A stretch of DNA of 43,857 nt from Promethearchaeota archaeon (GTDB lineage Archaea > Asgardarchaeota > Lokiarchaeia > Sigyniarchaeales > SOKP01): NCBI GenBank assembly GCA_004524535.1, contig SDNY01000016.1, forward strand, positions 1 through 43,857, read 5' to 3'. The translations under genes were made by a program, and so were the position numbers. The notes under the pieces were generated by a model. That model did no database searches, was not told where the DNA came from, and saw only the letters and a program-made list of their open reading frames with translations. Below, one piece after another: positions 1 to 29,739 of this stretch. Every line of letters starts with the position of its first letter. The stretch's first letter is position 1.

Positions 1-2183
1 TCTCCCAATGGAATTAACTTCGCTTCTACAATATGACCTCCCACACCATTATATTCTTCAGGTGTTCGGACATCTATCAAAACCGCTGGTTTGTCTTCTG
101 AATTAAGTCTTTCATATAACTCCTCTACTGTTATGTCTGAAATGGGAGGTGCCTCTAGAGGTCTTAATTCTTTTCTTGTTTTTTTCTTGGCTTTAATAGG
201 TGCGCTAATCTCATCAACAGAAAGCTCTCCTTTTTGAAGGATTGCGACCATTTTTCCTTCTTCTTTACCTAAATATAATAATTCGACCGCCTCAGTAAGC
301 TTAGCATAAGCTTCTACACTTGATTTAAAACTAGGATCAGTAGCATAAATCTTTAATTTTTTATTTTCAGGAAGAGTTTCTAAAGATTTTATTAAAGCGT
401 TTAAGGGACCAGGGCAGGATAATCCACATGCATCTATAACTACATAATTATCATCTTCCACAGATTTTTCCTTTACAAATTCCTCCATAATTTCACTTGT
501 ACCACCGCAGGCAGCTACAATTTCTTCTGTAGTAGCAGAGGCAATTTCGTAAGTTTTAAATCCTCCCGTCAATTCATATATTTCTTTATACCCCCGTTGT
601 AGCAATATTCGAGTAGCTAGATAGCTCCTATAACCCACTTCACAAAATGTTATTATAGGCTTTCCTTTTGGAATCTCATTTAATCGGTTTCTTAGGGCTT
701 CTAAGGGGATATTTATAGCTCCTTCAATAGTCCTTGATTTAAATTCTTCAGGAGTTCTAACATCTAGTATGATATTATCTTCTCCTTTAAGCTTATCTAT
801 ATCATGCCAGTGCCAAATAGGCATATCATTTTTCAAGTAATTGGCTGCGATGAAACCTGCCATATTTACCGGATCTTTAGCAGAACCATAGGGAGGAGCA
901 TAAGTTAATTCTAATTCTTCTAAATCAAACACGGTACCTCCCATTTTAATGATTGTTGAAATAACATCAATTCTTTTTTCACTTCCAGAACCGCCTACAA
1001 TCTGAGCTCCTAAAACTTTTCCCGAGGGGTCTTCGAATAATAATTTAAATGCCATTGGAACTGCTCCAGGATAATACCCTGCGTGATTATTAGGATGTAA
1101 ATATATTTTTTCATAATTTAAATCCGTATTTTTTAATTGTTTTTCCGTTAGACCAACTGTAGCTACGGTAATATCAAAAACCTTTACAACTGAAGCCCCT
1201 AAAAATCCTTTATATTGAGATTTTCTTCCTGCTATGTTCTCTGCTGCAATCCTACCCTGTTTATTAGCTGGCCCCGCTAATGCCATTGATATTGGCTTTT
1301 TAGTTTGATAATGTAAGAATTGAATAGCATCACCAACCGCATAAATATTTGGATCTGAGGTTAACATATTCCCATTAACAACGATATGTCCTCGTTCTCC
1401 TAATTCAAGACCCGCCTCTTTTGCCAATGTATTTTCTGGTCGAATTCCTACTGACATTATTATTAAATCTGTATCGATCGTACGTCCATTTTTAGTCTTT
1501 ACATTTATAATTCCATCTGGATCTCGCTCAAAAGAATCCACAGGGTCCTCTAACACTAAACAAACTCCATTCAAGATTAATTCTTGATGGATAAATTGAG
1601 CCATCTCCCTATCTATGGGCGGCATTACTTGATCGAGCATCTCTACAATTTTTACCTTAATGCCTTTTTTAACTAAATTCTCAACCATCTCCAATCCAAT
1701 AAATCCTCCTCCCACAACAACTGCTTTTTTAATTTGAGAATTATCGACAAATTTTCGAATTTTAACGGCATCTGGAATTGTCCATAGTTGATAATATGGT
1801 ACTTCTTCAAGACCCGGAAAAGGAGGAAGTATCGGAGTTGAACCTGTCGCTAATATAAGATAATTATATTCTAAATCATATTCATCTTGATCCTCTAAAT
1901 TTCTCACTTTAACAGTTTTATTCTTTCGATCTATTGAACTTACTTCGTTATTTACTCTCACATCTATATTAAATCTATCAAAAAATATCTGAGGAGGAAC
2001 TAATTCTAAGGAACTTCGATCTTTTATCACATTGCCCACATAATATGGTAATCCACAATTGGCAAAAGATACATACGGACCACGATCAAGCATAATTATT
2101 TCGATATTTTCTTTAAGGCGTCTTAATCGAGCAGCAGCGGATGCTCCACCCGCAACACCACCAATAATCACTACTCTTTCCAT
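1..2183 (-). CDS. CoA-disulfide/persulfide reductase fused to rhodanese, TusA and a second rhodanese domain (3' end runs off the window)
   Basis: Absent from the ORF track (runs off the edge). Manual translation from ATG 2183: MERVVIIGGVAGGASAAARLRR (FAD), SFANCGLPY (catalytic Cys), VVGGGFIGLE (NAD(P)H), LELTYAPPYGSAKDP; rhodanese 1 (ITFCEVGYRS); TusA (IDACGLSCPGP...ATDPSF); rhodanese 2 (LIDVRTPEEYNGVGGHI). Confidence 0.93.
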   Translation of the reverse strand, partial: MERVVIIGGVAGGASAAARLRRLKENIEIIMLDRGPYVSFANCGLPYYVGNVIKDRSSLELVPPQIFFDRFNIDVRVNNEVSSIDRKNKTVKVRNLEDQDEYDLEYNYLILATGSTPILPPFPGLEEVPYYQLWTIPDAVKIRKFVDNSQIKKAVVVGGGFIGLEMVENLVKKGIKVKIVEMLDQVMPPIDREMAQFIHQELILNGVCLVLEDPVDSFERDPDGIINVKTKNGRTIDTDLIIMSVGIRPENTLAKEAGLELGERGHIVVNGNMLTSDPNIYAVGDAIQFLHYQTKKPISMALAGPANKQGRIAAENIAGRKSQYKGFLGASVVKVFDITVATVGLTEKQLKNTDLNYEKIYLHPNNHAGYYPGAVPMAFKLLFEDPSGKVLGAQIVGGSGSEKRIDVISTIIKMGGTVFDLEELELTYAPPYGSAKDPVNMAGFIAANYLKNDMPIWHWHDIDKLKGEDNIILDVRTPEEFKSRTIEGAINIPLEALRNRLNEIPKGKPIITFCEVGYRSYLATRILLQRGYKEIYELTGGFKTYEIASATTEEIVAACGGTSEIMEEFVKEKSVEDDNYVVIDACGLSCPGPLNALIKSLETLPENKKLKIYATDPSFKSSVEAYAKLTEAVELLYLGKEEGKMVAILQKGELSVDEISAPIKAKKKTRKELRPLEAPPISDITVEELYERLNSEDKPAVLIDVRTPEEYNGVGGHIVEAKLIPLG

Positions 2184-2236
2184 AATTATTAATCACAAAA
2201 ATAGGAATTTATCAAAATTATTATAATCAAGTAATG

Positions 2237-2247
2237 AAAAAAAAAAA
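2237..2247 (-). terminator. Possible oligo-U terminator after iscU
   Basis: T11 run on the minus strand ~15 nt downstream of the iscU stop. Oligo-T tracts are typical archaeal terminators, but T runs are common in this AT-rich DNA. Confidence 0.3.
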
Positions 2248-2262
2248 GTTTTTAATTCAATT

Positions 2263-3054
2263 CTAATCAAGAATTATTACTACGTCTACAAATAACTCAT
2301 ACTGCTCGTCCTCATCAAAGTCATGAATAACCACTTTTTCAACTTCGTCAAGTTCTCCTTTAATTTCAATTACTTCAGATTGATATAAGATCTTAACATC
2401 AGAACGCTCAAGTTTTTTCCGTATTTCTACCCTACCTGGTGTAGATTTAGCAGAAGTAACTAGTATAACTCTACCCGTATATTCAGTCAATTTTAAAGCT
2501 AACTCTAAAGATTCATCTCCTGTATCGGAGACTATAATTCTTTTATCTCTTAATTGTTCTAAATCATCAACTTTTTTATATACACCTTTACCTAGAAATT
2601 CTTCTACTCCAAGTATAACTCTAACTTCTAACTGGCAGGATGTTACTACCTCTATTTCTGGTTTTGAACCCGTGCGGTAATTATCTATAGCAGCCTGTAA
2701 TGCATCTGCCGCTAAGTTCGAGCAATGCATTTTAATAGGGGGCAAGCCATCTAATTCGTCAGCTACATCACCTCTAGATATCTTATATGCCTCGTCAAGT
2801 GTCATACCTTTAGCCATTTCAGTTATCATTGAGGATGTTGAAACGGCTGAGCCACAACCAAACGTTTTAAATTTTATATCAGTAATAATTTCTTCTCCTT
2901 CTTTGTTTTTTCCCACTTTAATGTAGATCCACATTAGATCTCCACATACAGGATTACCAACCTTACCAACTCCGTCAGCATCTTCTATTTCGCCAACATT
3001 TCTTGGGTTCCTAAAGTGATCCATAACTTTTTCAGTATATTTATGCACACTCAT
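2263..3054 (-). CDS. iscU: IscU/NifU Fe-S scaffold with a C-terminal degenerate thioredoxin-reductase NADPH-binding domain
   Basis: YTEKVMDHFRNPRNVG, NPVCGD, FKTFGCGSA and KMHCSNLA are intact. The C-terminal ~120 aa resemble the TrxB NADPH domain (GVEEFLGKGV...KRIIV...SLELALKL...EVIEIKG...ELFVDVVII). SD AGGAGG lies upstream. Confidence 0.92.
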   Translation of the reverse strand: MSVHKYTEKVMDHFRNPRNVGEIEDADGVGKVGNPVCGDLMWIYIKVGKNKEGEEIITDIKFKTFGCGSAVSTSSMITEMAKGMTLDEAYKISRGDVADELDGLPPIKMHCSNLAADALQAAIDNYRTGSKPEIEVVTSCQLEVRVILGVEEFLGKGVYKKVDDLEQLRDKRIIVSDTGDESLELALKLTEYTGRVILVTSAKSTPGRVEIRKKLERSDVKILYQSEVIEIKGELDEVEKVVIHDFDEDEQYELFVDVVIILD

Positions 3055-4245
3055 TTAATTTACCTCCTTTTTAATTTGTTCTAAAAATTTTGGTGGTGTA
3101 AGAGGTGATAAAACTCTTAACTTTCTTACTACCTCTGGTAAAACTTCTATAATTTTATCAACATCTTTTTCCTCAGAAAATCTTCCTAATGTCAGTAATA
3201 AGCTACCATGTGCCTCTTCATGCAATAGACCACATGATATTAACGTATGGGAAGGTTCAAGCGTTTTTGAAGAGCAAGCTGATCCAGTGGCTACTTCTAC
3301 ATTTTCATCTTTTAGAGCGAGTAGTAATGACTCACCCTCAATATAATCAAAGCGGAAATTCGCATTATGAGATGTCCGTTCTTCAGGGTGTCCGTTTAAG
3401 TAGGATTTAGGGATCTTTAAAATTCCCTCAATCAGTTTATCTCTTAATTTTTTCAATCTTGCAGCTTCTGTATTAATTTCAGCTTTCATTATTTCTGCTG
3501 CTTTAGCAAAACCCACAATTCCAGGCATGTTTTCTGAACCTGATCGCATCCCCTTCTCTTGGCCACCACCAATAATTATTGGATTCACCCTTACCCCTTT
3601 TTTTAAATATAAAGCACCAATCCCTCTAGGGCCATAAATTTCATTGGAAGAAAGAGTCAATAAATCGAATGGAACCTTTTGCACGTCTATAGGAACAGAA
3701 GATTGCGTAGCTACCGCATCAGAATGGAACCAAACTTTATTTTTTTGGGCGATTTCCGCGATTTCTTCTATAGGTTGTAAAGTTCCAATTTCATTACTAG
3801 CTGTAGATATTGAAATTAAAATGGTTTTATCATTTATCAAACGCTCAAGTTTATTCAGATTAATTCTCCCATATTGATCAACTGAAAGTCGACTTACTTT
3901 AAATCCCTCTCTTTCTAGATATTTTCCTATATTTAAAATTGAGATATGCTCGATTTCTGAGATAATTATATGATTTCCTTTTCTCTTATTTCGTAATGCT
4001 CCTCCAATTATCGCAAGATTATTTGATTCTGTGGCACCAGAAGTAAAGATTATATTGTCTGGGCTTGGAGCATTGATAAATTCTGCTATTGTTTGTCTAG
4101 ACTCTTCTAATTTATTCGTTGCATTATAACCATAAAGATGTAATGAGGATGGATTACCAAATTCTTCTATAAAATATGGTTTCATCGCATCAAATACACG
4201 CGGATCCACTGGTTTAGCTGCTTGATAATCTAAGTAAGCACTCAT
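3055..4245 (-). CDS. iscS: IscS/NifS-family (class V aminotransferase) protein lacking the PLP lysine
   Basis: YLD...FGNPSSLH, FTSGATESNN, EH, NEIGT, GGGQE, RSGSEN and GSACSS (persulfide Cys) are present. SSNEIYGPRG replaces canonical SxHKxYGPKG. Confidence 0.93.
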   Translation of the reverse strand: MSAYLDYQAAKPVDPRVFDAMKPYFIEEFGNPSSLHLYGYNATNKLEESRQTIAEFINAPSPDNIIFTSGATESNNLAIIGGALRNKRKGNHIIISEIEHISILNIGKYLEREGFKVSRLSVDQYGRINLNKLERLINDKTILISISTASNEIGTLQPIEEIAEIAQKNKVWFHSDAVATQSSVPIDVQKVPFDLLTLSSNEIYGPRGIGALYLKKGVRVNPIIIGGGQEKGMRSGSENMPGIVGFAKAAEIMKAEINTEAARLKKLRDKLIEGILKIPKSYLNGHPEERTSHNANFRFDYIEGESLLLALKDENVEVATGSACSSKTLEPSHTLISCGLLHEEAHGSLLLTLGRFSEEKDVDKIIEVLPEVVRKLRVLSPLTPPKFLEQIKKEVN

Positions 4246-4286
4246 TATTTATCCCTCCGTTTTATAAAAAAAATTAAAGAAATAAA

Positions 4287-4643
4287 TTAAAACCACATGG
4301 TAGCATCAGCTTCTAATGCTAAATCATTTAAAGTTGCTGCTCCAACAATTTTAACACCTGGAATTAACTCAACTTTCTCCCAACCCAACATTCTTTTTGA
4401 GGCTTCACAAACTAAAATTTCTACACCCGCTTCCAAAGTTTTATCAATCATTTCTTTAACAGATGGAAAATCACCCAATTTTATTTTTTCGGCCTCCCCT
4501 GGTTTTAATATTTTTAAACCTGTCCCTAAATAATAAACTATTGCATTAATATCCATAGCTTTTGCTGTCTGTGCCAACACTAGCGGAGAATATTGACGTT
4601 CAGGATCGTCGCTTGTTTGTACATACAATATGCTTTTTCCCAT
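4287..4643 (-). CDS. DsrE/DsrF-like sulfur-transfer protein
   Basis: 118 aa with the DsrE pattern: VYYLGTGLKIL...GVEILVCEAS (conserved Cys)...VGAATLNDLALEAD. Confidence 0.85.
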   Translation of the reverse strand: MGKSILYVQTSDDPERQYSPLVLAQTAKAMDINAIVYYLGTGLKILKPGEAEKIKLGDFPSVKEMIDKTLEAGVEILVCEASKRMLGWEKVELIPGVKIVGAATLNDLALEADATMWF

Positions 4644-4660
4644 TTCGCATCACTCTTATT

Positions 4661-4915
4661 TTATTTTTTTTTCTTAAAAATAAATGTTAGAATATCGTCC
4701 TCCTTTCTAAAATCTAAAATTTCTGTCTCAGTTCTTTTAGCCCACCTTTGCAAATCTTCTTCAGCAGCAGGATCGTCAGCAATGACTTTAAAACACTGAC
4801 CAATTTCAAGAGTTTCAGATAGATTTCTTACTTCAAATAAAGGTTCTGGACAAAATAATCCAGTTGTATCCAACTCCTCTTCAATTTCAAATTCATTATT
4901 TTCCTTATCACTCAA
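4661..4915 (-). CDS. tusA: TusA/SirA sulfur carrier
   Basis: LDTTGLFCPEP (CPxP) and ADDPAAEEDLQRWA. The start is probably TTG at 4915, because the GTG at 4930 overlaps the SD-like GAGGT. Confidence 0.9.
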   Translation of the reverse strand: MSDKENNEFEIEEELDTTGLFCPEPLFEVRNLSETLEIGQCFKVIADDPAAEEDLQRWAKRTETEILDFRKEDDILTFIFKKKK

Positions 4916-5172
4916 TTTTTTCAACCTCACTTTTTATGATTAATAAGATAATTTTTTGCTTTATATTGATTTCGTAAATTAGAAAGGATCTTTTTTGTTA
5001 TGTTTACTGTTATTATTCAGATCTTTTACTAAAAAGATAAACATTATTCTTATAATTTAGTTAAAATAAAGAATAATTGAAGAATTAGTATAAAGCAATA
5101 TTAATAAGACTTTTATAATTTATAAACTTCGAAAAAAATATTTTGAAAATCCTTGAAATTAAAATAGAGATT

Positions 5173-6018
5173 TTAAGTTATATATGGTTTTAATAATTGT
5201 AATCTTGTTTCTCTTGATGTTCTATTTCTTACAGGATTCCAATTTCCATACAGTTCTTCATGAAAAGTGGGCTTTTTAATTCTATAAAATATCCCAATGG
5301 GCAGTTTATCTTTTTTTTTAACAATTTTCATCGCCTCATCGAAAGATTTCGGTTCTTTTTCAAGTATTTCAGTATTCTCTCGATAGAATTGCCAAGTGTC
5401 TTTATATGCAACAGCTGGTTGTAAAATTTCTAAGAATGAAAAACCTTTATGCTCAATAGCTTTTACCATAAGATCTGTGAGATGTGCTTGTTTTCCTGGA
5501 AATCCTCTAGCAATGAATGTTGCACCTGCTTCTAGCATAATTGCAAGAGCATTTAAGGGTTCTTCAACACTTCCTTTGGGAGTAGAGGGGCCTTTCCATC
5601 CTTTTTCTGAAAGAGGTGTATATTGACCAGTTGTTAAAGCATAAACACCATTATTATGTAAAATAAGAGTCATATTAAAGTTTCTTTTAGCGGCAAATAT
5701 CGTGTGTGCAAGTCCTTCTCCCATCGCGTTTCCATCACCCGAAAATGTTATAACGTTTAATTCGGGATTCGCAATTTTCATTCCTTGGACCGTTGCAATA
5801 TCTCTCCCATGTAGTGAATATAGACCACTCATATTCAAATAATCAAAAATCTTAGCATGACATCCAATTCCAGCGGAAATTACAATGTATTCTCTATTAA
5901 TCCCTTTTTCCTCTAATTTTACTATCGCTTTTTTAAAAGCACTCAAAATACCAAAATTCCCGCAAATTCGGCGACCTCGGCACCAAGTATTTTCAGCATA
6001 TGTGTCTAAATCATCCAT
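5173..6018 (-). CDS. korB: 2-oxoacid:ferredoxin oxidoreductase beta subunit (TPP-binding) with an atypical Cys ligand set
   Basis: NTWC...CGNFGI, GIGCH, LHGR, SGDG...NNGVYALTTGQ. Directly downstream of the alpha subunit. Confidence 0.9.
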   Translation of the reverse strand: MDDLDTYAENTWCRGRRICGNFGILSAFKKAIVKLEEKGINREYIVISAGIGCHAKIFDYLNMSGLYSLHGRDIATVQGMKIANPELNVITFSGDGNAMGEGLAHTIFAAKRNFNMTLILHNNGVYALTTGQYTPLSEKGWKGPSTPKGSVEEPLNALAIMLEAGATFIARGFPGKQAHLTDLMVKAIEHKGFSFLEILQPAVAYKDTWQFYRENTEILEKEPKSFDEAMKIVKKKDKLPIGIFYRIKKPTFHEELYGNWNPVRNRTSRETRLQLLKPYIT

Positions 6019-6019
6019 T

Positions 6020-7675
6020 TTAAATTACCTCCTTAATTTTTTCAGCTAATTCAATTGGATCAAAAGGACGCCCATCGTACTTATTAATTAGATACTTACT
6101 CTGAATATTTGCCTTTTCTTTTAGAAGTGAGGTGAATTGTCCCATTTTGCTCAATTCTATGGTTATTACGGGCTCATCTTTATATCTTTCCAGTTCCCAT
6201 ACTGGTAAGGGACTAAGATATATTGGCTGGATTATAGTCGCTTCAATGTCTCCATAGTGAAGAGCTTCTAATACGCTCATTGTAGTTGAACCATATGTAA
6301 AAATTAAAGGCCCCCCGGTTCCATATACATTTACCGTTTTTAGTTGCTTTAAAAAATCAATAATATGCATATTTTTTTTATACCTTTTATTATGCATTTT
6401 TGTTATTAGTTCGGGATTTTCAGTAGTTATCCCTAACTCATCATGTTCATAACTCGTCCATTTAATTATTTCTTTAGATGGTGGAAATAGTAATGGAGAA
6501 ATTCCGTCTTCTGTATCAAGATATCTTTTGTAGTCACCACTTTTATGGTATTTAGGTTCTGCCCACTTTATATTCTTCATCTCCATTTCAATTGTCATGC
6601 TACTCTCGGATAGATGTTTTTCAGTTAATATAATCCCTGGAGTTTGAAATTTCCAAACAAGATCAAGTAATTCTGCAGTTAGATAAAATGCCTCTTTTAT
6701 TGAACCAGGACATGCTACAATCCTTAAAAATTCACCATGTCCAGCATTTAAAGCAAAATTCAAATCACCTTGCTCTGTATAGGTTGGTACGCCTGTAGCA
6801 GGACCAGGTCTCATTGATAGGACGCATAATATCGGCGCTTCAGCCATTCCTGCCAATGAGAGCCCTTCAACCATAAGAGCAAATCCCCCTCCACTTGATC
6901 CAACCATAGCTTTAGCTCCTGCAAATGCAGATCCTATAGCCATATTAATAACAGCAATTTCATTCTCTGGATGTATAACTGCCAAACCAAATTTTTCTGC
7001 TTGAGCTGCTAATATGTGTAAAATAGAGGATGCAGGAGTCATGGGATACCCATAATAGGTATCTAAACCTCCTGCAATAGCTCCTAGTGCTATAGATTGA
7101 TTGCCCGTTAGGATAGGTCTTTTTTTATCTCCATTTTGAACTTCAAATTTATTATTTATAGTAGGAAATACAATATCGTAAATAGCATTCGCAAATGAGA
7201 TGTTATCTTCTACAAAACTAGGGTATTCTTTTTTAATTATTTCATTCAAATCATTTTTACTAATTCCTATTGAACACGCTAAAATAGCAACTGCTCCCAC
7301 ACCATATAAAAGATTTTTTGCAGGAAATTTTTTAGCTTCGCTATAAAAAGGGACACCAATTCCTTCAGCATTGTCAATTTCATCAGAATTATAAATAATG
7401 AGACCATTTTTATCAAGCTCATTGGCATGTATCTCATAACTTCTTTTATCTGAATTTACAATTAAACCTGCTTTCATATAATGACTATGTATCTCACTTG
7501 TAGCAGTGCTTATAACTGAGAAATTATGTCCTCCTCTTATTAAACTCATATAGTCATCCATCTGAAATACTTGTCTTCCTCTCTCAATAAAAATTTGAGA
7601 AGCAACAGAACCAGCCTTTTTTACACCTTCTCCAGCTTTACCTCCTACGATAAATGTAAAAACATTTTTTTTTAT
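6020..7675 (-). CDS. korA: 2-oxoacid:ferredoxin oxidoreductase alpha subunit (gamma-alpha fusion)
   Basis: YMSLIRGGHNF, GNQSIALG, GYPMTPAS, ENEIA, SSGGGFALM, RPGPATGVPT. The frame stays open upstream of the ORF-track ATG (7561) and encodes the conserved VFTFIVGGKAGEG. The most upstream start-like codon in frame is ATA 7675, 6 nt after GGTGA. Confidence 0.92.
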   Translation of the reverse strand: MKKNVFTFIVGGKAGEGVKKAGSVASQIFIERGRQVFQMDDYMSLIRGGHNFSVISTATSEIHSHYMKAGLIVNSDKRSYEIHANELDKNGLIIYNSDEIDNAEGIGVPFYSEAKKFPAKNLLYGVGAVAILACSIGISKNDLNEIIKKEYPSFVEDNISFANAIYDIVFPTINNKFEVQNGDKKRPILTGNQSIALGAIAGGLDTYYGYPMTPASSILHILAAQAEKFGLAVIHPENEIAVINMAIGSAFAGAKAMVGSSGGGFALMVEGLSLAGMAEAPILCVLSMRPGPATGVPTYTEQGDLNFALNAGHGEFLRIVACPGSIKEAFYLTAELLDLVWKFQTPGIILTEKHLSESSMTIEMEMKNIKWAEPKYHKSGDYKRYLDTEDGISPLLFPPSKEIIKWTSYEHDELGITTENPELITKMHNKRYKKNMHIIDFLKQLKTVNVYGTGGPLIFTYGSTTMSVLEALHYGDIEATIIQPIYLSPLPVWELERYKDEPVITIELSKMGQFTSLLKEKANIQSKYLINKYDGRPFDPIELAEKIKEVI

Positions 7676-8643: not shown

Positions 8644-9205
8644 ATTTCAATCACTAATTTTTTAAAAAGATGCAAAACTAATAAATTTTAATCTTTGAGA
8701 CAGTTTATATTTATTAAGTACAAGATTTTTAAGGATATATTATATTTTTTAATAGACGATTTTAGATTTTCAATTAGGATTTATTTTAATGGTGTTTTTT
8801 ATGTCTAAAAGTAAAGAAAAAGCGATTCCTATAGGAAACGCAATTGAAAGTATTAATATTTCAAAAACTTATATCTCTGGAGAAGTAAAAGTTCAAGCAT
8901 TGAAAAAAATAAATTTTGAAGTAAAAAATGGTGAGAGATTAGTAATTTTAGGTCCTTCAGGATCAGGAAAAACAACATTGTTAAATTTATTAGGGGGTAT
9001 AACAAGTCCTGATGGAAAAAAAGGATCGCTGAATATATTTGGAAAAACTATTCATAGTTATAATCAAAAACAACTTAAAGATTATCGTCACGAAAGGATT
9101 GGTTTTATTTTCCAGTTTTTTAATCTGTTTCCTGCATTAAATGCCTTGGATAATGTAATAATTGGAATAGTTCTTCTTAAAAAAAATTAAAAAGTGATTT
9201 AAATT
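8624..9205 (+). repeat. Direct repeat copy 1 (~580 bp)
   Basis: Aligns to 38267-38849 with an offset of ~29643. It covers the start of the Zn-ribbon gene, the divergent intergenic region and the 5' half of the ABC ATPase. Roughly 93-94% identical by approximate manual count. Confidence 0.95.
8801..9190 (+). pseudogene. Truncated duplicate of the ABC ATPase at 38444
   Basis: Near-identical to residues 1-~130 of 38444..39181 (Walker A GPSGSGKTT). An A8 versus A9 run causes a frameshift and stop, and homology ends at ~9205. The signature motif and Walker B are missing. Confidence 0.92.
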
Positions 9206-15555: not shown

Positions 15556-18500
15556 ATGAAAAATAAAGAATTGAAATCAAGAATTTTTTCTCTTTTACTT
15601 TTAATGACGATATTATTGATGGTTTTATCACAAAATAATACTTTTTTTTACAAAAATAATGATGATAAGATTAAAGAGAAAAGTCATTACAATAATATTA
15701 ACAAGATAAAGTCGAGTACTGTACATAATGCAACTTATATTTATAATAATAATTTTTCTGCGCTTCCTTCTTGTACTGGAAGCGGAACATACAAAGATCC
15801 CTATGTCATAAAGAATTTAGAAATTGATGGTGAAGATAGTCATTCCTGTATTGTTATTGAAGATTCAGACGCATTTTTTCGCATTGAGAATTGTACTCTT
15901 TATAACATAGGGAGTCTATCTTCTGAAAGTGTAGGAATTAAATTGATTAATACTTCTAATGGTATACTAATAAATAATAGTTGTTCAAGTAATTGGGATG
16001 GAAACTATGGAATATATTTACATAATGGTTGTAAAAATAACACGATTACAAATAATACTATAATAAGTACTCAGAATGGAATTTATTTAAATGATATATG
16101 CTATAATAACACTATTACTAGTAATACTATAACTGATGCCCAAAATGGAATATATTTATACAAAGGATGCCATAATAATACCATTACACAAAATATAGTA
16201 TCAAAATCTACTTTTTCTGGCATACATTTAAATGAGGCTTGTAATGATAATCGTTTTTCTGGAAATCTCTTAAACAATAATGATCTAATGGGTATGACCA
16301 TATCAAGTTCCAGTGGCAATAACATTACTAATTCTAATGAATTTAATGATAATAAAATCGGATTATATCTATTAACAAGCACCAATAATATTTTTTCTGA
16401 AGATAATGATTTTTCCTATAATAGCATGTACGGTATCTATTTAAGCGCTTCATCTATGAATACTTTTAAAGGAAATACGATAACTGATAATAATGATATA
16501 GGATTATATGTGTTTCAGGCAGTAGGGGGCAGTAATAACAATTATTTTTATGAAAACTTTTTTAGGAGTAATGCAATACATGCTGTTGACGAGGGAGATG
16601 GGAACAATTGGAATTCTAGTACCATTGGCAATTTTTGGGATAATTACACTGATATGGGGTCAGGAGCTGTAGATTTTGATGATGATGGCATAGGGGACAT
16701 TCCATATAATTTTACGGGAGGTATTGATAATTTTCCAATATGGAACGATGGAATCGAGGAAGGTTTTATTGAAATTAATGAACTCGCCTCGGGTTATAAT
16801 GCTCATAATTGGACCTGGGCCAGCGGTAGGTTTTGGTGTTCTGGTTCCGGCCTTGCTTCAGATCCTTATGTGATTAAACCGAATATGTTATGGAATGGAG
16901 TTATTAATGGAGCTGGTACTTATACTTGTATTTCAATATTAAATTCTACCAAATATTTTAGGATTGAAGATTGTACATTTTATAATTCTAATCAATCAGG
17001 AGCAGGAATTAAATTATATAATACAACTAACGGAGAAATTATCAATAATAATTGCTCTTCCAATCAAGGTCATGGAATATTTCTAAATAATTCTTCCCAA
17101 AATAGGATCATAGGGAATACTATTATTAATAATCTTAATGCAGGAATATACCTAATGTATAACTGTGATTTTAATAATATTTCTTCAAATAATTTAACAG
17201 GGAACGGTGAATATGGGATTCATATAGTAAATATTACCTGTAATAATAACATATTTTATAATAATACTTTTCAAGGAAACGCATTATTTAATTCTCTTGA
17301 TAATGGGACTAATACAAAATGGTTTTTTGGAGAACTAGGAAACAATTGGGATGATTATCCTGGAGCCGATGCAGATGACGATGGAATTGGCGATACTCCC
17401 TATACTAAAGGGGGGGTATTCGATAAATACCCTATATTTAAAGATGGACTTGACGGAATGCCCTTGTATATAGACGCACTAGCTAATGGTGTTGGTGCGC
17501 AAAATTGGACCTGGGCAAGTAAACGACTTTACATAAGTGGTTCTGGAACATTAGAAGATCCGTATGTCATTAAAGATATCATTATTAATGGCAAAAATTC
17601 AACGAGTTGCATTGTCATTAATAATTCTGAGGCGTATTTTAAAATTGAAAATTGTATTCTCTATAATTCCAGTTTTGGGGTTCCTCCGAATTTTGAGGCA
17701 GGAATCAAATTGGTAAATACTAGCAACGGGCTGATAATTAATAACAACTGTTCATTTAATACTCAACGCGGAATATATCTATATTCAAATTGTGAGAATA
17801 ACACTGTTTCTGGAAATGTTTTAAATGACAACACTTATGGTATTTATTTGAGTAATTGCGATAACAACACTCTTGCTGGAAATGATTTATATAATAATAG
17901 CTATGGTTTTTACTTGAATAACTGTAATAATAACACCATTTTAGGAAATTATATAGCCAATAATAGTAATGACGGGATTTACTTTTATACTTCTGAAGAA
18001 AATAATTTCACTGATAATATTTTAAGAGATAACGCTAATAGAGGGATATTTCTTGATGGTAATGATGGAGGAAGTAATAATAACCTCTTCTATAAAAACA
18101 ATTTCACTGGAAATTTAATTCATGCTATTGATGAACTATCAAGTAATTATTGGAATAATTCGGATATAGGGAATTTTTGGAGCAATTACTCAGATTTTGA
18201 TGCAAATGACGATGGGATTGGAGATAATCCTCATATATTCAATGGAGGGAGGGATTGGCTCCCAATTTGGAACGACGGATATAATGGGAGTAAAATTCAT
18301 ATTGATGGCTCAGGTATCAATGCTCCTAATTGGGAATGGGTCGTTTCTAGAATATGGTGTTCAGGTTCAGGAAGTCATTCTGACCCATATATTATTAAAA
18401 ATCTCGAAATTAATGGTGAAAATGATAGTAGTTGTATTTTAATTGAAAAATCAACCGCGTTTTTTAGGATTGAAGACTGCACAATTTATAACTCAGGATC

Positions 18501-19554
18501 AGATGCTCATGATGCGGGAATTGAATTATCCAATGTAACCAATGGCACAATTATTAATAATAATTGTTCTAACAATAACCAAAATGGAATATTACTTTAT
18601 AATAAATGCTCTAACAACACCATATCAGAAAATACATGTAGTGATAATGGAGTTAATGGAATAAAATTAGAAATTTTTTGCGAAAATAATACTCTATTTA
18701 AGAATTCTATTAGTAAAAATGAAATTGGAATTTACTTAAACCAATGTTATTACACAGACATGTCTCAAAATACAATAGAAAATAATGATATAGGGATTGG
18801 AGTTGATTATAATAGCGATTTTAATAATATAACAAATAATATCATAAATTACAATACTGATTATGGAATTGTAATTTTACAATATTTATGCGAACACAAT
18901 TTATTATATAATAATAGTTTCATTGGAAATAAAGTCCATGCCAAAAATGATGGATATAACAATGATTGGGATAATGGAATTATTGGAAATTATTGGGATG
19001 ATTATATAGGAAAAGATCCCGATGATGATGGAATTGGAAATACGCCATATTCAAGTATTACTGGTATAATAGGAGGTCAAGATAATTATCCTATTTGGTG
19101 GGATGATCCAGCTCTTTATATTGTCGATCCGAAAGGGGGCAAGAAATTTGGAGAAAACTCTCCAACTTTTGACATTAGAGTTGACGAAGGAAGAGGCTAT
19201 TATTTTTGGTATGAATTTATAGGTACTGGAATAAACTCATCCGTGACTCAATTATCTGGAGATCTTACTTTAAATATATCAGGAACTATAGACCAAAATC
19301 TTTGGAACAGACTATCCAATGGTCCAATAACTATTAGATTTTATGTAAACGATAGCCAGGGATTTATTGGTCATATAGATGTTGATATTACAAAAAATGT
19401 CCTTGTTGATGTTGATGATGATGATGATTGGAAGACCAAAGAAGGAATACCATTATGGTTACAAGCGATATTTATAGTTATGATTAGTGTATGTATAGGG
19501 TTTATAATAATAATATTCTATAATGAATATAAGAAGAGAAAAAAAACTCTTTAA
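15556..19554 (+). CDS. Large membrane-anchored surface protein with four NosD/right-handed beta-helix modules
   Basis: N-terminal signal/anchor; four modules each running from GSG...DPY(V/I)I to GNxWxxY...DxxDDGIGxxP; many NxS/T sequons; then an Ig-like segment, an acidic linker, a C-terminal TM helix and a basic tail. Confidence 0.88.
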   Translation: MKNKELKSRIFSLLLLMTILLMVLSQNNTFFYKNNDDKIKEKSHYNNINKIKSSTVHNATYIYNNNFSALPSCTGSGTYKDPYVIKNLEIDGEDSHSCIVIEDSDAFFRIENCTLYNIGSLSSESVGIKLINTSNGILINNSCSSNWDGNYGIYLHNGCKNNTITNNTIISTQNGIYLNDICYNNTITSNTITDAQNGIYLYKGCHNNTITQNIVSKSTFSGIHLNEACNDNRFSGNLLNNNDLMGMTISSSSGNNITNSNEFNDNKIGLYLLTSTNNIFSEDNDFSYNSMYGIYLSASSMNTFKGNTITDNNDIGLYVFQAVGGSNNNYFYENFFRSNAIHAVDEGDGNNWNSSTIGNFWDNYTDMGSGAVDFDDDGIGDIPYNFTGGIDNFPIWNDGIEEGFIEINELASGYNAHNWTWASGRFWCSGSGLASDPYVIKPNMLWNGVINGAGTYTCISILNSTKYFRIEDCTFYNSNQSGAGIKLYNTTNGEIINNNCSSNQGHGIFLNNSSQNRIIGNTIINNLNAGIYLMYNCDFNNISSNNLTGNGEYGIHIVNITCNNNIFYNNTFQGNALFNSLDNGTNTKWFFGELGNNWDDYPGADADDDGIGDTPYTKGGVFDKYPIFKDGLDGMPLYIDALANGVGAQNWTWASKRLYISGSGTLEDPYVIKDIIINGKNSTSCIVINNSEAYFKIENCILYNSSFGVPPNFEAGIKLVNTSNGLIINNNCSFNTQRGIYLYSNCENNTVSGNVLNDNTYGIYLSNCDNNTLAGNDLYNNSYGFYLNNCNNNTILGNYIANNSNDGIYFYTSEENNFTDNILRDNANRGIFLDGNDGGSNNNLFYKNNFTGNLIHAIDELSSNYWNNSDIGNFWSNYSDFDANDDGIGDNPHIFNGGRDWLPIWNDGYNGSKIHIDGSGINAPNWEWVVSRIWCSGSGSHSDPYIIKNLEINGENDSSCILIEKSTAFFRIEDCTIYNSGSDAHDAGIELSNVTNGTIINNNCSNNNQNGILLYNKCSNNTISENTCSDNGVNGIKLEIFCENNTLFKNSISKNEIGIYLNQCYYTDMSQNTIENNDIGIGVDYNSDFNNITNNIINYNTDYGIVILQYLCEHNLLYNNSFIGNKVHAKNDGYNNDWDNGIIGNYWDDYIGKDPDDDGIGNTPYSSITGIIGGQDNYPIWWDDPALYIVDPKGGKKFGENSPTFDIRVDEGRGYYFWYEFIGTGINSSVTQLSGDLTLNISGTIDQNLWNRLSNGPITIRFYVNDSQGFIGHIDVDITKNVLVDVDDDDDWKTKEGIPLWLQAIFIVMISVCIGFIIIIFYNEYKKRKKTL

Positions 19555-21162: not shown

Positions 21163-24100
21163 TTGATTAAAAATCTTTTCAAAAATAGTCTAATAGCTAC
21201 ATTTATTTTTGTTTTCATACTTATTTATTTGTTATTTTTATATGCACTCTACATTGTTCCAAATAATTTTGCTGATAAAATATCATTTATTATGATATTA
21301 GGATTTACTATTGTCATAGTAGGGGTGTTCTTAGCTGCTTTTCTAAAAACAAATTCTAGAAAAAATAGTGAAGTTTTCCTTAATTTTAATTTTATATCAG
21401 AGGATTTAATTAAAATAATTCTTTTAATTTCTATGATTGCTGCTTTTTTTATTCCTCCTATGAAAAACTCAATGGCTACAGATTGGCGACAGGTTCAAAC
21501 TATAAATTTTATTCGGGCAATTATTTACATTATCGGATCTTTATTCTTACCAGGTGCTTGTTTGTACAATTTCTTGTTCACTAAAAATGAACTTGAAGAT
21601 TTAGTAAAAATAGAGCCTTTTCTCCTAAAATTAACACTTTTTCCAATTTTTTCATTAGTTTTTATAGGAATTAGTGTTATGATATTAGACATAATAGGAT
21701 TAGTTAAAGAAATTTTCCAATTAATTCTACTTTTATTCTTTATCGGGCTTTTTATGATTGATCAAATTATAAAAATCAGAAATAGTGGTATTTATTTATT
21801 TTCTAAAGCTAAAATAAATATTTCAAGAAATTCATTTATTATCCTATTTATCGCAGCCGGTGTTTCAATTATTTCTCTTGGAATTTATATTTCTACAGAA
21901 TATCTTATACAAGGTGATTCTTGGTGGCCATTAGGCCCTTGTAATTATATAGGACGCAAAGATATCGATATAATTGATCTCTACCATGATCAACATTACC
22001 CTCCGTTTGCGGGTTATATCCTTGTTGGTTTAGGATCTTTAACTGGCCTACCATATTTAAATACTAATGCCCTTTTAGCTCCATTTTCTTATGTATCAAT
22101 AACCTCGATGTATATCTTTATGAAATCTATTTTAGATAAATATAATCCAGACTTTTCATATTTATCCACGATTTTAGTTTCGATATATGGAGGTCTGTTT
22201 CTACTTTATCCCATTCAAATTAATAATTGGTTTAATATATCTCATTATAGCTTTCGAAGTATGTTTATTTTTGATTATAAAACAATAACATTCATTCTTT
22301 TTTATATTGCATTGAGTTTTTTCTTTTATTCAATAGGGAGTAATTCAATAGTAGATAAATCCTCCAAAATAAATAAATTATATAAACCTCTTGAATTAAA
22401 ATTAATCATTTTAGCTTCTTTTTTATTGATAATTGGATATCTAATATATATGATTCCATTAATTCCTGCTATTTACATTAGTTTCTTTTATTTTCTTTTC
22501 TCAAAAAAGCAATTAAAAAAAAAAATCTTTTCAACACTCCTCCTTTTTTGGCTAATGATTATTTTATTTTTTATAATTTTTGATTTTGCATTAATGTTTA
22601 TTCTTAGTGATCTTTTTTATAACAAATTTGTAAAATATATTTTCACACCTCCATGGATTTCTCCCACTTTATTCGTTTATACCATCCTATTTAGTCTAGT
22701 ATTCTCTATTTTTCTTTTCTTTTTAATCTACAAAAAATTTTTTTATGAAAAAACTATTAGAATAGAGAAATTAAAGTTAAAACTAACTATTATCTATGCA
22801 ATATTTATCTTGGGATTTACTATCTTTATTTCAATTATTATTTATAATACAATAAAAAATCATGATGATATAAATAAACATTATATCCTTGTAAATCAGT
22901 TATCATTTGAATACATAATTCTGAATATTGGATTAATAGGTATATTGGCTATTTATTTTTTATATTTTTGTTTTAAAAATTATGAAAATAATAAAGAATT
23001 AGTAAATTTTTTAATATCCTGGATTCTTTTTTCATTAATTTTTTCTTCAATATCATTTATTCAAATTCGATTCGATAAGATAAATCCAACTTTTGAAGAT
23101 CTTCTATTTGCTTTTAATTGGTTTGATAAAAATTGGATTTTTGCAATCCCTGCATTTTCTATTTTAACCATTATCGGAGGATTTGAATTTAGAAAGAAAT
23201 TATGGAGTTTAAAAATCTTCAAATTAAATAAATTCAATACTTTATATATAAAGAGTTTAATTTGCACGAATAAATTATTGGCTATTTCATTAATACTAAT
23301 TTTATCTTATTCAAATATTATTATTGGAGGAGTATATAGAGGGAATACGGATGAAAATAGAAGAATGTCAGATGCGGAAGCCCAAGTTGTGGGTTGGGTT
23401 GCTGATAATATTGATCATGATTCTAATATCCTTATTGAAAACCGATTTCAACTATATACTCCTATTAATTACTTGATAAACTCAACAGTTTATTTGATAC
23501 ATAGTGCAAGAAATTTCGATCACATTTTCGATTACCAAATTCCTTATGAATTACAAACTTATAAATTAAAAGAAAATAAAATAGAATATGCGATATTTTA
23601 CGATGATATACACTACGGTTGTAATAAAAAGATGTCAAATTTCATAGATGGGTATTTAATTCCTTTTTTCTTTGACGAAGTCGTATACCATTATAAAGAC
23701 ATTACTATCTATCGAAGAGCACCTAACATTAAAATTAATGGGATATATAAGGCAACTTATAATTTTATTTATGATACTGTTGAGCTTAATGAATGGAATC
23801 TTTATGAAAAGGGAGGTGATGTAAAGGTTATTCTTGAACATAATGGACATAAAAAAGTCGTTCAATTATTTGATAATAATGAAAATAAGTTAGTTAAAAT
23901 GACTAATAGTTTTAATATACAAGAAAGCGGTACTATTGAATTATATTTTGAATCTACTGAAATAGAAGAAGAATTATCAATTAGACTTCAATCTAATTTT
24001 TATATAGGTCCATATATTTGTATTAAATCCTCTGAATTCTTGTATTATAATGGAACTCAATTTGTAACTATTTGTGATGCTCAAAAGGATACATTTTATC

Positions 24101-24351
24101 ATTTAAGGATTGATTTTGAGTGTGGAAATAAAACTTATGAGGGTCTTAATCAAGATGAATTTTTCATATATATCAACGATATAAAATATGGCCCCTTTAA
24201 TTTTTCAGAAGATATTAATACAGTTGACAAATTTGTAATAGCGACAAGTAAGGAATTTAAAAATGGTTCTGTATATTTGGATGCAGTAGGTTATTCCTGG
24301 GATGGAAACTATAATATTGGTGATAATAAACTGGAAATAATGACAGCATGA
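21163..24351 (+). CDS. Large polytopic GT-C-like membrane protein with a C-terminal extracellular domain (paralog A)
   Basis: Many TM helices; loop motif GDSW...YPPF; post-TM EAQVVGWVADNI...ILIE segment resembling the STT3/ArnT soluble domain; terminal YHLRIDFE...YLDAVGYSWD...IGDN beta domain. Confidence 0.65.
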   Translation: MIKNLFKNSLIATFIFVFILIYLLFLYALYIVPNNFADKISFIMILGFTIVIVGVFLAAFLKTNSRKNSEVFLNFNFISEDLIKIILLISMIAAFFIPPMKNSMATDWRQVQTINFIRAIIYIIGSLFLPGACLYNFLFTKNELEDLVKIEPFLLKLTLFPIFSLVFIGISVMILDIIGLVKEIFQLILLLFFIGLFMIDQIIKIRNSGIYLFSKAKINISRNSFIILFIAAGVSIISLGIYISTEYLIQGDSWWPLGPCNYIGRKDIDIIDLYHDQHYPPFAGYILVGLGSLTGLPYLNTNALLAPFSYVSITSMYIFMKSILDKYNPDFSYLSTILVSIYGGLFLLYPIQINNWFNISHYSFRSMFIFDYKTITFILFYIALSFFFYSIGSNSIVDKSSKINKLYKPLELKLIILASFLLIIGYLIYMIPLIPAIYISFFYFLFSKKQLKKKIFSTLLLFWLMIILFFIIFDFALMFILSDLFYNKFVKYIFTPPWISPTLFVYTILFSLVFSIFLFFLIYKKFFYEKTIRIEKLKLKLTIIYAIFILGFTIFISIIIYNTIKNHDDINKHYILVNQLSFEYIILNIGLIGILAIYFLYFCFKNYENNKELVNFLISWILFSLIFSSISFIQIRFDKINPTFEDLLFAFNWFDKNWIFAIPAFSILTIIGGFEFRKKLWSLKIFKLNKFNTLYIKSLICTNKLLAISLILILSYSNIIIGGVYRGNTDENRRMSDAEAQVVGWVADNIDHDSNILIENRFQLYTPINYLINSTVYLIHSARNFDHIFDYQIPYELQTYKLKENKIEYAIFYDDIHYGCNKKMSNFIDGYLIPFFFDEVVYHYKDITIYRRAPNIKINGIYKATYNFIYDTVELNEWNLYEKGGDVKVILEHNGHKKVVQLFDNNENKLVKMTNSFNIQESGTIELYFESTEIEEELSIRLQSNFYIGPYICIKSSEFLYYNGTQFVTICDAQKDTFYHLRIDFECGNKTYEGLNQDEFFIYINDIKYGPFNFSEDINTVDKFVIATSKEFKNGSVYLDAVGYSWDGNYNIGDNKLEIMTA

Positions 24352-27828: not shown

Positions 27829-29607
27829 ATGGGTGGGATTTGTGGATTTAATTGGAACGATAAAGAGTTAATTCATAGAATGGTAAATTCTATCATCCAT
27901 AGAGGGCCTGATGGTACAAATTATTTCATTGGTAATAAAGTATCATTAGGTTATGCTAGGCTCGCTACCATTGATCTATTAAAAAGGAGTGGAGAATTAA
28001 TTCATAATGAAGATAGTACATTATGGATAGCATTGAATGGTGTGATTTATAATTACCATAATATTCGAAAAAACTTGGAACATCTTGGTCATAAATTTTA
28101 TACGAACACTATTGCTGAAACCATATTACACTCATATGAACAGTATGGCTATCGATGCTTAAATACTTTTAATGGACAATTTACATTTTGTATTTATGAT
28201 GTTAATAAAAAAAATCTTTTTTTAGCTCGAGATAAATTTGGAATAAAACCATTATATTATTATTACAAAAATAATCGGTTCATCTTTGGCTCTGAAATAA
28301 AAGCTATTCTCCAATATGATTTAGAAAAGAAAATCAAGAAAGAAGCTTTAAGAGAATACTTTACTTACAGATTCACAATTGCTCCAAATACGATATTTGA
28401 AGATATTTATAAATTAAAACCCTCTCATTATATAATTCTAAATTTGGAAACAAATGAGATAACTTTGAAGAGTTATTTTAGGCTGGATATTGATTTAAAG
28501 ATGTCTATACCTATGAAAGAAATCGCATTTATAACTTTTAAACTATTGAACCAATCTGTAAAGCTAAGAATGACTGCTGATGTACCCATTTGCACTTTTT
28601 TATCTGGAGGTATAGACTCCAGTATAGTAACAGGTCTTGCGTCTCAATATAATAAAAATCTAAATACATTTTCAGTGGGATTTGAAAATTCTAATGAATT
28701 AAATTATGCAAAACTAGTATCTGATTACTTCAATACAACCCACCATGAATATATACTAACTAATGATGACGTAATTAAAGAATTTGATAAAATGATATTT
28801 CATATAGATGAGCCAATAGGAGACGCTGCTTTTTTACCAGTCTTATTTCTTTCTAAACAGATGAGTAAAAAATTTAAAATTGCATTAACCGGAGATGCTG
28901 GAGATGAAGTATTTGGAGGGTATGATAAATATAAGATGTTCTATTATGGACGATTTATCTCAAAATTCATTCCAAAAATCAAAATAAATCAAGAAATAAT
29001 AAGGAGACTATCGAAATTATCTGAATTAAGAGATATTGACGCTTATATAGAGACAATACGAGTATTTTCTGATGAGGATTTGAGTAAATTGCATATAGAA
29101 CCCAGAAAAACCTATAAATATTGGATAGAAAATTTAAGAACAATGCAAAAAATGCAATTTTATGATTTAAATACTTCGGTTACTGAAGATTTCAATATGA
29201 AATCTGATAAAATGAGTATGGCTTTTGGTGTTGAACAGCGATTTCCTTTTGCAGATGAAAGAATAATTAAGTTTGCGTTAAGTTTACCCCTGAAATTGAA
29301 ACTCCGCTTTTGGAATGAAAAATTTTTGTTAAAAAAATCTTTCTCCACATTTTTGCCTAAAACAATAGTTAAGAGAAGAAAAAGAGGATTTAATACTCCT
29401 ATGGATGACTGGTTTAAAACAATTCTAAAAGAGCGTTTTATAAATTTACTGACTAATAAATCTCATAAATTATATAACAAAGAACATGCAATAACACTTT
29501 TTAAGAGATTAATAAAAAGTAGTTCAAATTATAAAAGAAATTTTCTTTTAAGCCAAAAGCTTTGGACAATTTTTGTTTTTGAAGAATGGTATAATCAAGT
29601 GTTCTAA
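27829..29607 (+). CDS. AsnB-family ATP-dependent amide ligase with an inactivated glutaminase domain
   Basis: Full length. LSGGIDSS, DEPIGD and GDEVFGGY are kept, but it has MGGICG (Cys2->Gly), NGVIYN and TNTIAE. Confidence 0.9.
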   Translation: MGGICGFNWNDKELIHRMVNSIIHRGPDGTNYFIGNKVSLGYARLATIDLLKRSGELIHNEDSTLWIALNGVIYNYHNIRKNLEHLGHKFYTNTIAETILHSYEQYGYRCLNTFNGQFTFCIYDVNKKNLFLARDKFGIKPLYYYYKNNRFIFGSEIKAILQYDLEKKIKKEALREYFTYRFTIAPNTIFEDIYKLKPSHYIILNLETNEITLKSYFRLDIDLKMSIPMKEIAFITFKLLNQSVKLRMTADVPICTFLSGGIDSSIVTGLASQYNKNLNTFSVGFENSNELNYAKLVSDYFNTTHHEYILTNDDVIKEFDKMIFHIDEPIGDAAFLPVLFLSKQMSKKFKIALTGDAGDEVFGGYDKYKMFYYGRFISKFIPKIKINQEIIRRLSKLSELRDIDAYIETIRVFSDEDLSKLHIEPRKTYKYWIENLRTMQKMQFYDLNTSVTEDFNMKSDKMSMAFGVEQRFPFADERIIKFALSLPLKLKLRFWNEKFLLKKSFSTFLPKTIVKRRKRGFNTPMDDWFKTILKERFINLLTNKSHKLYNKEHAITLFKRLIKSSSNYKRNFLLSQKLWTIFVFEEWYNQVF

Positions 29608-29739
29608 TTTCTTCATGTTCAATGTAATTAAACATATATAACTAATATATAAACATAGTTTATTTTTGAGCAAAAATTCAATACAATAATTTAAGGTTTT
29701 TTACTTTAGCTTAAAACTTTTATAGACTTTCATTAAAAT

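Follow-up and report, generated by a model that had tools for sequence, protein, structure and literature searches.

From where does an IscS protein receive its sulfur once the lysine for pyridoxal phosphate (PLP) has disappeared from its active site? This question is posed by a gene group at the start of contig SDNY01000016.1 of a Promethearchaeota archaeon (GenBank assembly GCA_004524535.1), of which positions 1 to 43,857 of the forward strand were analysed; this whole stretch of 43,857 nucleotides (nt) is called the window in the following. All five sulfur and iron-sulfur (Fe-S) genes of the group lie on the minus strand, in the order tusA-dsrE-iscS*-iscU::tail-CoADR::Rhd::TusA::Rhd, where iscS* encodes the lysine-less IscS, the tail of IscU is thioredoxin reductase (TrxR)-like, CoADR stands for CoA-disulfide reductase and Rhd for rhodanese. 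A sequence-only reading of this DNA had seen five co-oriented, close genes as a candidate operon for persulfide-fed, cysteine-independent Fe-S assembly, with the adjacent KorAB as an Fe-S client. Strand, spacing and domains are indeed as described there, with Pfam and NCBIfam agreeing with every domain call across the five genes. The conserved unit, however, is the shorter set tusA-(dsrE)-iscS*-iscU, in which the pairing of IscS* with IscU and TusA is fixed and that with a DsrE3-like carrier frequent. On balance we favour reading this unit as a variant of the MIS type (minimal ISC system, MisS/MisU, of archaea) in which TusA and DsrE would feed persulfide to the cysteine of IscS* and to IscU.

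The gene iscS* (3055-4245, minus strand) encodes a protein with the fold of class-V aminotransferases (Aminotran_5, expect value (E) 3e-78), in which the motif SSNEIYGP stands where E. coli IscS has S-G-H-K; in the alignment to E. coli K-12 IscS, Asn201 and Glu202 of the window protein correspond to His205 and Lys206. Its closest solved structure is Archaeoglobus fulgidus IscS2 (PDB 4EB5_A, E 4e-144), which reads SSNDIYGP at this place. To see how far the substitution extends, 57 IscS rows with Asn followed by Asp or Glu at these two positions (N-D/E rows in the following) and 30 lysine-bearing rows were aligned to the E. coli protein. Four positions, Q183, H205, K206 and R354 in E. coli numbering, have changed to Ala, Asn, Asp or Glu, and a residue other than Arg in 57/57 N-D/E rows (Ala, Asn, Glu and Leu in the window), while all 30 lysine-bearing relatives keep Q/H/K/R. 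We take Q183, H205 and R354 to have catalytic roles in the E. coli enzyme. By contrast, H104, D180 and the loop cysteine C328 are conserved in all 87 rows; the last of these is Cys324 of the window protein, situated in a GSACSSK loop. The protein thus retains the fold and the mobile-loop cysteine of class I desulfurases and has neither the PLP lysine nor the three other catalytic residues, and it scores below the equivalog cut-offs of NCBIfam for FeS_nifS (467.3 vs 530.75) and IscS (419.2 vs 643.2). The earlier observation of an IscS devoid of the PLP lysine but with its active-site cysteine in place was therefore correct, and the loss of three more catalytic positions throughout the clade can be added to it.

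By its S-S-N-[DE] motif and its placement in a clade that holds Archaeoglobaceae sequences, IscS* is a member of the A. fulgidus IscS2-type clade. A lysine-less IscS is not new, because A. fulgidus IscS2 has already been described: A. fulgidus IscS is stated to be without desulfurase activity owing to a Lys-to-Asp change, its cysteine to act as a ligand to the [2Fe-2S] cluster that IscU bears, and IscS1 of Methanosarcina acetivorans to be likewise without the lysine (PMC7585200). Judged from the alignment, the N-D/E clade appears to have given up PLP-dependent desulfuration of cysteine, with four catalytic positions changed together and the persulfide-carrying cysteine kept.

The neighbours of such genes carry the evidence for the conserved unit. 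A first sample comprised 80 related loci, 57 of them with an N-D/E IscS and 21 with a lysine-bearing one, the remaining two reading H-R (L085) and N-Q (L088); neighbours were scored by tblastn with the window proteins, with at least 700 nt of room for TusA and at least 1 kb for DsrE. TusA lies directly upstream in 51 of the 52 N-D/E loci with sufficient room (the exception is L071) and in 0/19 lysine-bearing loci, and DsrE stands between TusA and IscS in 14/51 as against 0/18. IscU follows directly downstream in both groups (53/53 and 19/20), yet its TrxR-like tail is found in 47/51 N-D/E loci (none in the Geoglobus loci L063 and L064 or in L070 and L071) and in 0/20 lysine-bearing ones. Neither L085 nor L088, both long-branch rows, has TusA, DsrE, IscU or the tail as neighbours. 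When a profile built from 34 cassette TusAs was run on the lysine-bearing loci, it found no match there except one in L080. This locus has, 2.5 kb away from its canonical IscS and IscU genes, an additional set to which the matching TusA belongs; the set consists of TusA, a DrsE_2-family protein, an IscS with the motif SAHTIHGP (K->T) and an IscU::FeS_assembly_P fusion.

For a second sample, the class of the Geoglobus genome G301 and the order of G302 were searched, at 61 genomes each, and the loci were taken with flanks of 1.5 kb; after six already-counted loci and the partial L122 were set aside, this sample yielded 21 new lysine-less and 32 new lysine-bearing loci. TusA adjoins 20/21 of the former and 0/32 of the latter, DsrE is present in 10/21 new lysine-less loci, and TusA is still found in one of these (L120) where the lysine is replaced by Gln. 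The expected co-occurrence of lysine-less IscS with TusA, DsrE and CoADR-Rhd thus holds for TusA in both samples and often for DsrE, but for CoADR-Rhd only in the window's own subclade. No report tying TusA or DsrE to lysine-less IscS was met in those parts of the literature that were searched, which did not include Garcia et al. 2022, supplements, a TusA review by Tanabe, Leimkuhler and Dahl, or the original work on the A. fulgidus proteins (Marinoni 2012, Yamanaka 2013, Pagnier 2014/15), where the linkage may be mentioned.

The cassette occurs in genomes of Asgard archaea, Archaeoglobaceae and Methanomassiliicoccales as well as in Desulfobacter-like, 'deltaproteobacterial' and Gaiellales genomes. 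In a quick IQ-TREE analysis of 78 rows, from which three partial rows were dropped, the N-D/E rows form a single clade (54 rows, SH-aLRT 93), supported with 92 by FastTree and with 96 on a subset, and the K->Q row is its sister (89). The rows from Desulfobacter, 'deltaproteobacteria' and Gaiellales nest within the archaeal clade and keep TusA-IscS-IscU together with the tail, so the cassette has apparently been transferred as a unit. The K->T row of L080 falls outside the N-D/E clade on a long branch in two trees, and its joining the clade is not rejected (approximately unbiased (AU) test, p 0.175). With this value, an independent loss of the lysine in L080 is not demonstrated. The IscU of this K->T set (L080:15520-16161, a Methanomassiliicoccaceae genome) is fused to FeS_assembly_P (PF01883) and not to the TrxR-like tail, which fits a role in Fe-S assembly.

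The two putative carriers of the window retain the conserved cysteines of their families. The tusA gene (4661-4930, minus strand, GTG start at 4930; TTG at 4915 is the likelier start, giving the 84-aa form found in relatives) encodes a sulfur carrier with a CPEP motif, a form of CPxP, which matches PF01206 at E 7e-18 with 64.6 bits against a gathering threshold of 28.6 and stays below the NCBIfam TusA equivalog cut-off (48.1 vs 78); across 34 cassette TusAs, neither this cysteine nor a DDP motif varies. The product of dsrE (4287-4643, minus strand, 118 aa) matches PF02635 and PF13686 and is DsrE3-like. Its closest solved relative is 3MC3 (E 3e-13), with whose cysteine its single conserved Cys79 aligns, and 3MC3 is named as a DsrE3A type in PMC11094781. 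With an active-site cysteine and similarity to DsrE3A, it may be classed as a putative DsrE3-type carrier.

The iscU fusion gene (2263-3054, minus strand) combines NifU_N (E 1e-46 over aa 5-128) with a TrxR-like part (aa 147-261). Its scaffold domain (aa 1-132, 2659-3054) has the ligands Cys37, Asp39, Cys67, His110 and Cys111, as expected of an Fe-S scaffold, and scores above the TIGR03419 cut-off (195.6 vs 187.9). The structure model of the whole fusion reaches a mean pLDDT of 84.8 with a disordered linker at 133-144, and its IscU domain matches 7C8M and 4EB5_C. The tail (aa 145-263 plus stop, 2263-2622, minus strand; TIGR01292, E 8e-12) covers only positions 117-232 of that profile, and its model, with pLDDT of 83-94 per 10-residue block from aa 151 and 64 for aa 141-150, superposes on the NADPH domain of 3F8D_C with a root-mean-square deviation of 1.7 A over 119 columns at 28% identity. 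Its fold resembles thioredoxin reductases and TrxR-like ferredoxin-NADP reductases. The conservation profile of the tail, however, contains no conserved Cys, no CxxC and no conserved glycine nucleotide motif, so it does not qualify as a thioredoxin reductase, which would have an FAD domain, a redox CxxC and a GxGxxA/G NADPH motif, and an electron-input module is ruled out by the missing motifs. Because conserved Cys and glycine motif are absent, we read the tail as non-catalytic, that is, as probably a catalytically dead docking or oligomerisation module; full-length matches that include it were found in about 136/301 sampled genomes of the phylum (hand count). A different kind of addition to iscU occurs in the methanogen-related loci L069 (3302-4813) and L073 (11169-12680), which have a lysine-bearing IscS: here iscU is split in frame by ~380 codons matching LAGLIDADG_3 (E 6e-19 and 7e-15), with NifU_N divided around them, an arrangement suggestive of an intein close to the first of the cluster ligands.

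From tusA to iscU the genes of the window are tightly spaced, with 17 nt between tusA and dsrE, 41 nt between dsrE and iscS and 0 nt between iscS and iscU, followed by 79 nt between iscU and CoADR. RNA-library contigs from two studies, of at least 85% likeness, span the junctions tusA/dsrE (X21 record 23, X22 record 30), dsrE/iscS (X21 record 22, X22 record 28) and iscS/iscU (X19 record 3, 2844-3305). They weakly favour a single transcript from tusA to iscU, given that contigs are not single molecules and that DNA carry-over is possible. No listed RNA contig crosses the gap between iscU and CoADR or that between KorB and tusA, where four runs have zero depth at 5081-5334; this absence is not counted as evidence.

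In the mechanism that we favour, TusA would bring sulfane sulfur as a cysteine persulfide. Its loading may be the work, directly or as an intermediate station, of the DsrE3-like carrier, of a rhodanese, of a thiosulfate route of the YeeE-TusA kind or of the canonical IscS. The persulfide-bearing TusA would then dock on the IscS* dimer as it does in the E. coli IscS-TusA complex, the sulfur would be handed over to Cys324 of IscS*, and the IscS* loop would pass it on to the cysteines of IscU. The CoADR-Rhd-TusA-Rhd protein would be encoded by a separate persulfide/CoA-thiol redox gene that may supply or buffer sulfane sulfur and does not belong to the core. As to a possible entry of thiosulfate, a YeeE/Sulf_transp transporter gene directly adjoins a TusA gene on another contig of the window genome (C156:7004-8230). 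A YeeE transporter with TusA is the classic pairing for thiosulfate uptake, so a plausible thiosulfate entry route exists in this organism.

For the docking step, the E. coli complex provides a template, in which Cys19 of TusA lies ~4 A from Cys328 of IscS and it is the second IscS subunit that contributes the loop cysteine opposite TusA (PMC2854127). Positions that contact TusA are retained in the N-D/E clade, with Arg55 in 57/57 rows, a basic residue at 220 in 54/57 and a hydrophobic one at 239 in 57/57, whereas among lysine-bearing relatives the latter two are found in only 17/30 rows each. This conservation is only suggestive of TusA docking. A predicted complex of one IscS* chain with TusA obtained a score of 0.00 and gives no verdict in either direction; given the origin of the loop cysteine in the E. 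coli complex, an IscS* dimer would be the better input.

A further-reaching proposal, which we regard as tentative, is that IscS* has not decayed but serves as a dedicated receiver of persulfide: TusA, together with DsrE3, would bring its loop cysteine sulfane sulfur that originates elsewhere than in cysteine, for example in thiosulfate or polysulfide. The cassette would moreover constitute the main route of the iron-sulfur cluster (ISC) type in Archaeoglobi, in many of the Asgard archaea and in a part of the sulfate-reducing bacteria. If this were true, Fe-S clusters would be assembled along a pathway independent of both PLP and cysteine, and many anaerobic archaea, among them the Asgard relatives of eukaryotes, would make their Fe-S clusters from trafficked persulfide in place of cysteine, which bears on the evolution of ISC systems.

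Several observations weigh against a TusA-fed IscS*. The direction of transfer, from TusA to IscS*, is drawn from sequence, neighbourhood and homology. The linkage counts are not independent, because the N-D/E rows are one clade, the K->Q row is its sister and the joining of the K->T row is not rejected; they stand for one to three long-retained events, not for dozens. In E. coli, TusA and IscU cannot bind IscS together and IscU displaces TusA (PMC2854127), so a relay would need alternating binding. The distribution of DsrE among lysine-less loci is patchy, and TusA itself is lacking in two of them: L071 (Bathyarchaeia) has a lysine-less IscS-IscU pair and no TusA within 10 kb by tblastn and profile, and L123 of genome G329 has a shortened DsrE only. 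The IscS of L123 differs from the crystallised chain 4EB5_A at 1/378 residues. In favour of the linkage, the same genome possesses a paralogous locus, L102, with TusA (77 aa, 3008-3241), DsrE (119 aa, 2648-3007; spacing to TusA 0 nt), an IscS reading SSNDIYGPKG, IscU and a helix-turn-helix (HTH) protein, whereas the open reading frame (ORF) upstream in L123 corresponds to the shortened DsrE. IscU is identical at both loci, and the 112-aa HTH proteins are equal in length and similar over much of it, from which a duplication of the region follows. L102 contains a further gene of the DrsE_2 family at 66-464.

Of the alternatives, the one that survives best holds that IscS*-IscU builds clusters from free sulfide, with IscS* as a structural partner that provides the fourth ligand, and that TusA and DsrE have other work to do, for instance the buffering or detoxification of sulfane sulfur, or supply for tRNA thiolation or for synthesis of the molybdenum cofactor. 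The passage of PMC7585200 on this protein family proposes a ligand role for IscS and not one in sulfur supply, and it reports recombinant A. fulgidus IscS-IscU obtained with a [2Fe-2S] cluster while being silent on TusA. The SMS system can be supported by sulfide alone, and IscU2 of M. acetivorans is loaded chemically by sulfide and iron in vitro, so free sulfide may suffice for the cassette too. The window DNA occurs in sediment metagenome runs of one study (share 1.00 in X1, 0.43 in X2), runs with small shares being disregarded in judging the habitat, and the two loci devoid of TusA fit as well. Yet free sulfide leaves unexplained why TusA accompanies lysine-less IscS at 51/52 and 20/21 loci and never a lysine-bearing one, even across the transfers to bacteria, and why the persulfide-accepting loop cysteine is invariant; moreover, no genes for tRNA thiolation or the molybdenum cofactor were seen in the loci examined. 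We therefore consider this explanation unlikely.

The five-gene operon of the sequence-only reading would place the CoADR fusion at the head of the relay: CoADR-Rhd-TusA-Rhd would mobilise polysulfide or thiosulfate with NAD(P)H, and the sulfur would flow through TusA and DsrE to IscS*/IscU, with KorAB as the client. The gene (3-2183, minus strand) has the features on which this idea is based. Besides being co-oriented with and close to the others in the window, it encodes the residues of Npsr and CoA-persulfide reductase (Cys43, the rhodanese Cys514, and the glycine motifs for FAD and NAD(P)H, GGVAGG at 8 and GGGFIG at 158) and keeps Cys590 in a TusA domain of its own. Matches to 3ICR (B. anthracis CoADR-RHD), 3NTA (Shewanella Npsr) and 8A56 (CoA-persulfide reductase) range from E 5e-172 to 3e-142, the latter two being persulfide or polysulfide reductases by name, although TIGR03385 stays under its equivalog cut-off (491 vs 578.8). 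Since the window starts at contig base 1, the gene is cut by the contig end (727 aa vs 794-798 aa in relatives) and the active-site loop of its second rhodanese lies outside the window; full-length relatives close with a second rhodanese that bears a CHSGSRS loop.

What speaks against such an operon is the position of this gene elsewhere. CoADR-Rhd is located downstream on the same strand in 29/30 loci of the window's Asgard subclade where 4 kb or more were available, but in 0/35 others, and even within the subclade only four loci have a gap to iscU of 133-215 nt, while in the other 25/29 it widens to 0.8-7.8 kb. The three larger gaps examined (L017, L025, L021) hold a gene of 377-383 aa on the opposite strand. 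The copy in L017 (11999-13150, minus strand) contains CCG and 4Fe-4S dicluster (HdrD-like) domains, confirmed for this locus; counterparts of the gene are present in L021 and L025, and the window has none. In L017 and L038, genes for rubrerythrin and desulfoferrodoxin follow CoADR-Rhd (Pfam check for L017 only), suggesting a context of redox stress, and a related Bacteroides fusion behaves as a thiol/disulfide stress gene. In the window itself, 11 consecutive T of the sense strand (2237-2247, minus strand) begin 15 nt past the iscU stop, followed by a TATA-like TTATAATAA ahead of the ATG of CoADR. Oligo-T runs act as terminators in archaea, and this one is a candidate. Thus, CoADR-Rhd is a lineage-specific neighbour that probably has a transcription unit of its own, contrary to the idea that it belongs to a conserved unit. 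KorB (5173-6018) and KorA (6020-7561) lie upstream of tusA beyond a gap of 242 nt, but neither has a match in any of the 80 related loci, and a linked Fe-S client is hence rejected. We regard the five-gene operon as improbable.

Whether sulfur might after all come from cysteine depends on the other desulfurases in these genomes. In the window genome, contig C173 encodes another IscS, which has kept the canonical Lys (motif SSAHKLYGPKG); a stand-alone IscU gene lies 8 kb from it, and the genome has three more NifU_N matches and one SufB-like gene. The organism is consequently not free of cysteine desulfurase, the term cysteine-independent does not hold for it as a whole, and cysteine could still be the ultimate source of the sulfur in a TusA-fed cassette. 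In five single-contig genomes of the group of G329, by comparison, strong full-length Aminotran_5 matches are confined to the lysine-less IscS (1e-77 to 1e-80), and the next-best matches, judged by score only, are partial and reach 1e-25 to 1e-29; in G301 and G305, the IscS query used finds no copy but the lysine-less one at E<=1e-30. That the canonical IscS desulfurates cysteine and loads TusA, the cassette merely redistributing cysteine-derived sulfur, would agree with the presence of this enzyme and its IscU in the window genome and with the direction from IscS to TusA established in E. coli, but is very doubtful in general, because cassette genomes that yield no second strong match of the IscS/NifS type cannot depend on a canonical IscS.

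Beyond the cassette, the window contains several further genes that may be recorded here. A 133-aa ORF at 8789-9190 corresponds to the first 79/137 positions of the ABC_tran profile and may represent an ABC ATPase shortened by truncation or a frameshift; in relatives, a similar upstream position holds an ORF of 247-265 aa beside one of ~635 aa, whose family assignment is unchecked. A protein of 1332 aa with repeated NosD/right-handed beta-helix domains is encoded at 15556-19554 in a low-GC stretch, and two ORFs of 1062 and 1027 aa (21163-24351 and 33839-36922) have no Pfam match at E<=1e-5. At 27829-31521, a pair of asparagine synthase paralogues, 592 and 593 aa long, is encoded in tandem beside genes for a glycosyltransferase and polysaccharide export.

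The tusA-(dsrE)-iscS*-iscU cassette and its neighbour may be compared with known systems. The CoADR-Rhd neighbour resembles Npsr, CoADR-RHD and CoA-persulfide reductase in its CoADR Cys43 and a fused rhodanese with cysteine, a corresponding activity being putative; with BF638R_0572 of Bacteroides fragilis (CoADR-Rhd-TusA-DsrE) it shares the extra TusA domain, whereas the fusion of the window lineage ends in a second rhodanese. Side-by-side genes for TusA and DsrE3-type proteins are likewise found in the relays of sulfur oxidisers (Metallosphaera DsrE3A-TusA and sHdr-associated cascades), but these feed dissimilatory sulfur oxidation complexes, while the partner in the cassette is an Fe-S scaffold pair. 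The relay between IscS and TusA in E. coli involves the same families, with the CPxP cysteine facing the IscS loop cysteine (PMC2854127). Sulfur there moves from IscS to TusA for tRNA thiolation, and in the cassette the flow would be reversed, because IscS* cannot make persulfide.

The likeness to MIS lies in a pair of IscS-like and IscU-like proteins without chaperones, ferredoxin or A-type carriers, and the loci examined have no hsc, fdx or iscA genes nearby. MIS is described with a cysteine desulfurase and no carrier; the cassette, by contrast, has lost the desulfurase residues and includes two sulfur carriers. The nearest counterpart is the IscS2-IscU pair of A. fulgidus (4EB5, 4EB7, 4HVK and the D199K variant 4R5F), which belongs to the same clade and has an acidic residue in place of Lys, the loop cysteine and IscU downstream; the window protein differs by Glu instead of Asp, and the tail of its IscU is absent from the Geoglobus (Archaeoglobaceae) loci L063 and L064. 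The literature searched treats the A. fulgidus system as one of two components, does not mention TusA-DsrE and names no sulfur donor for the pair. A TusA-fed cassette, if real, would answer where the sulfur of A. fulgidus IscS-IscU comes from, and the TusA-DsrE pair would be a concrete, testable candidate for the missing donor; the proteins of this organism are already known to crystallise.

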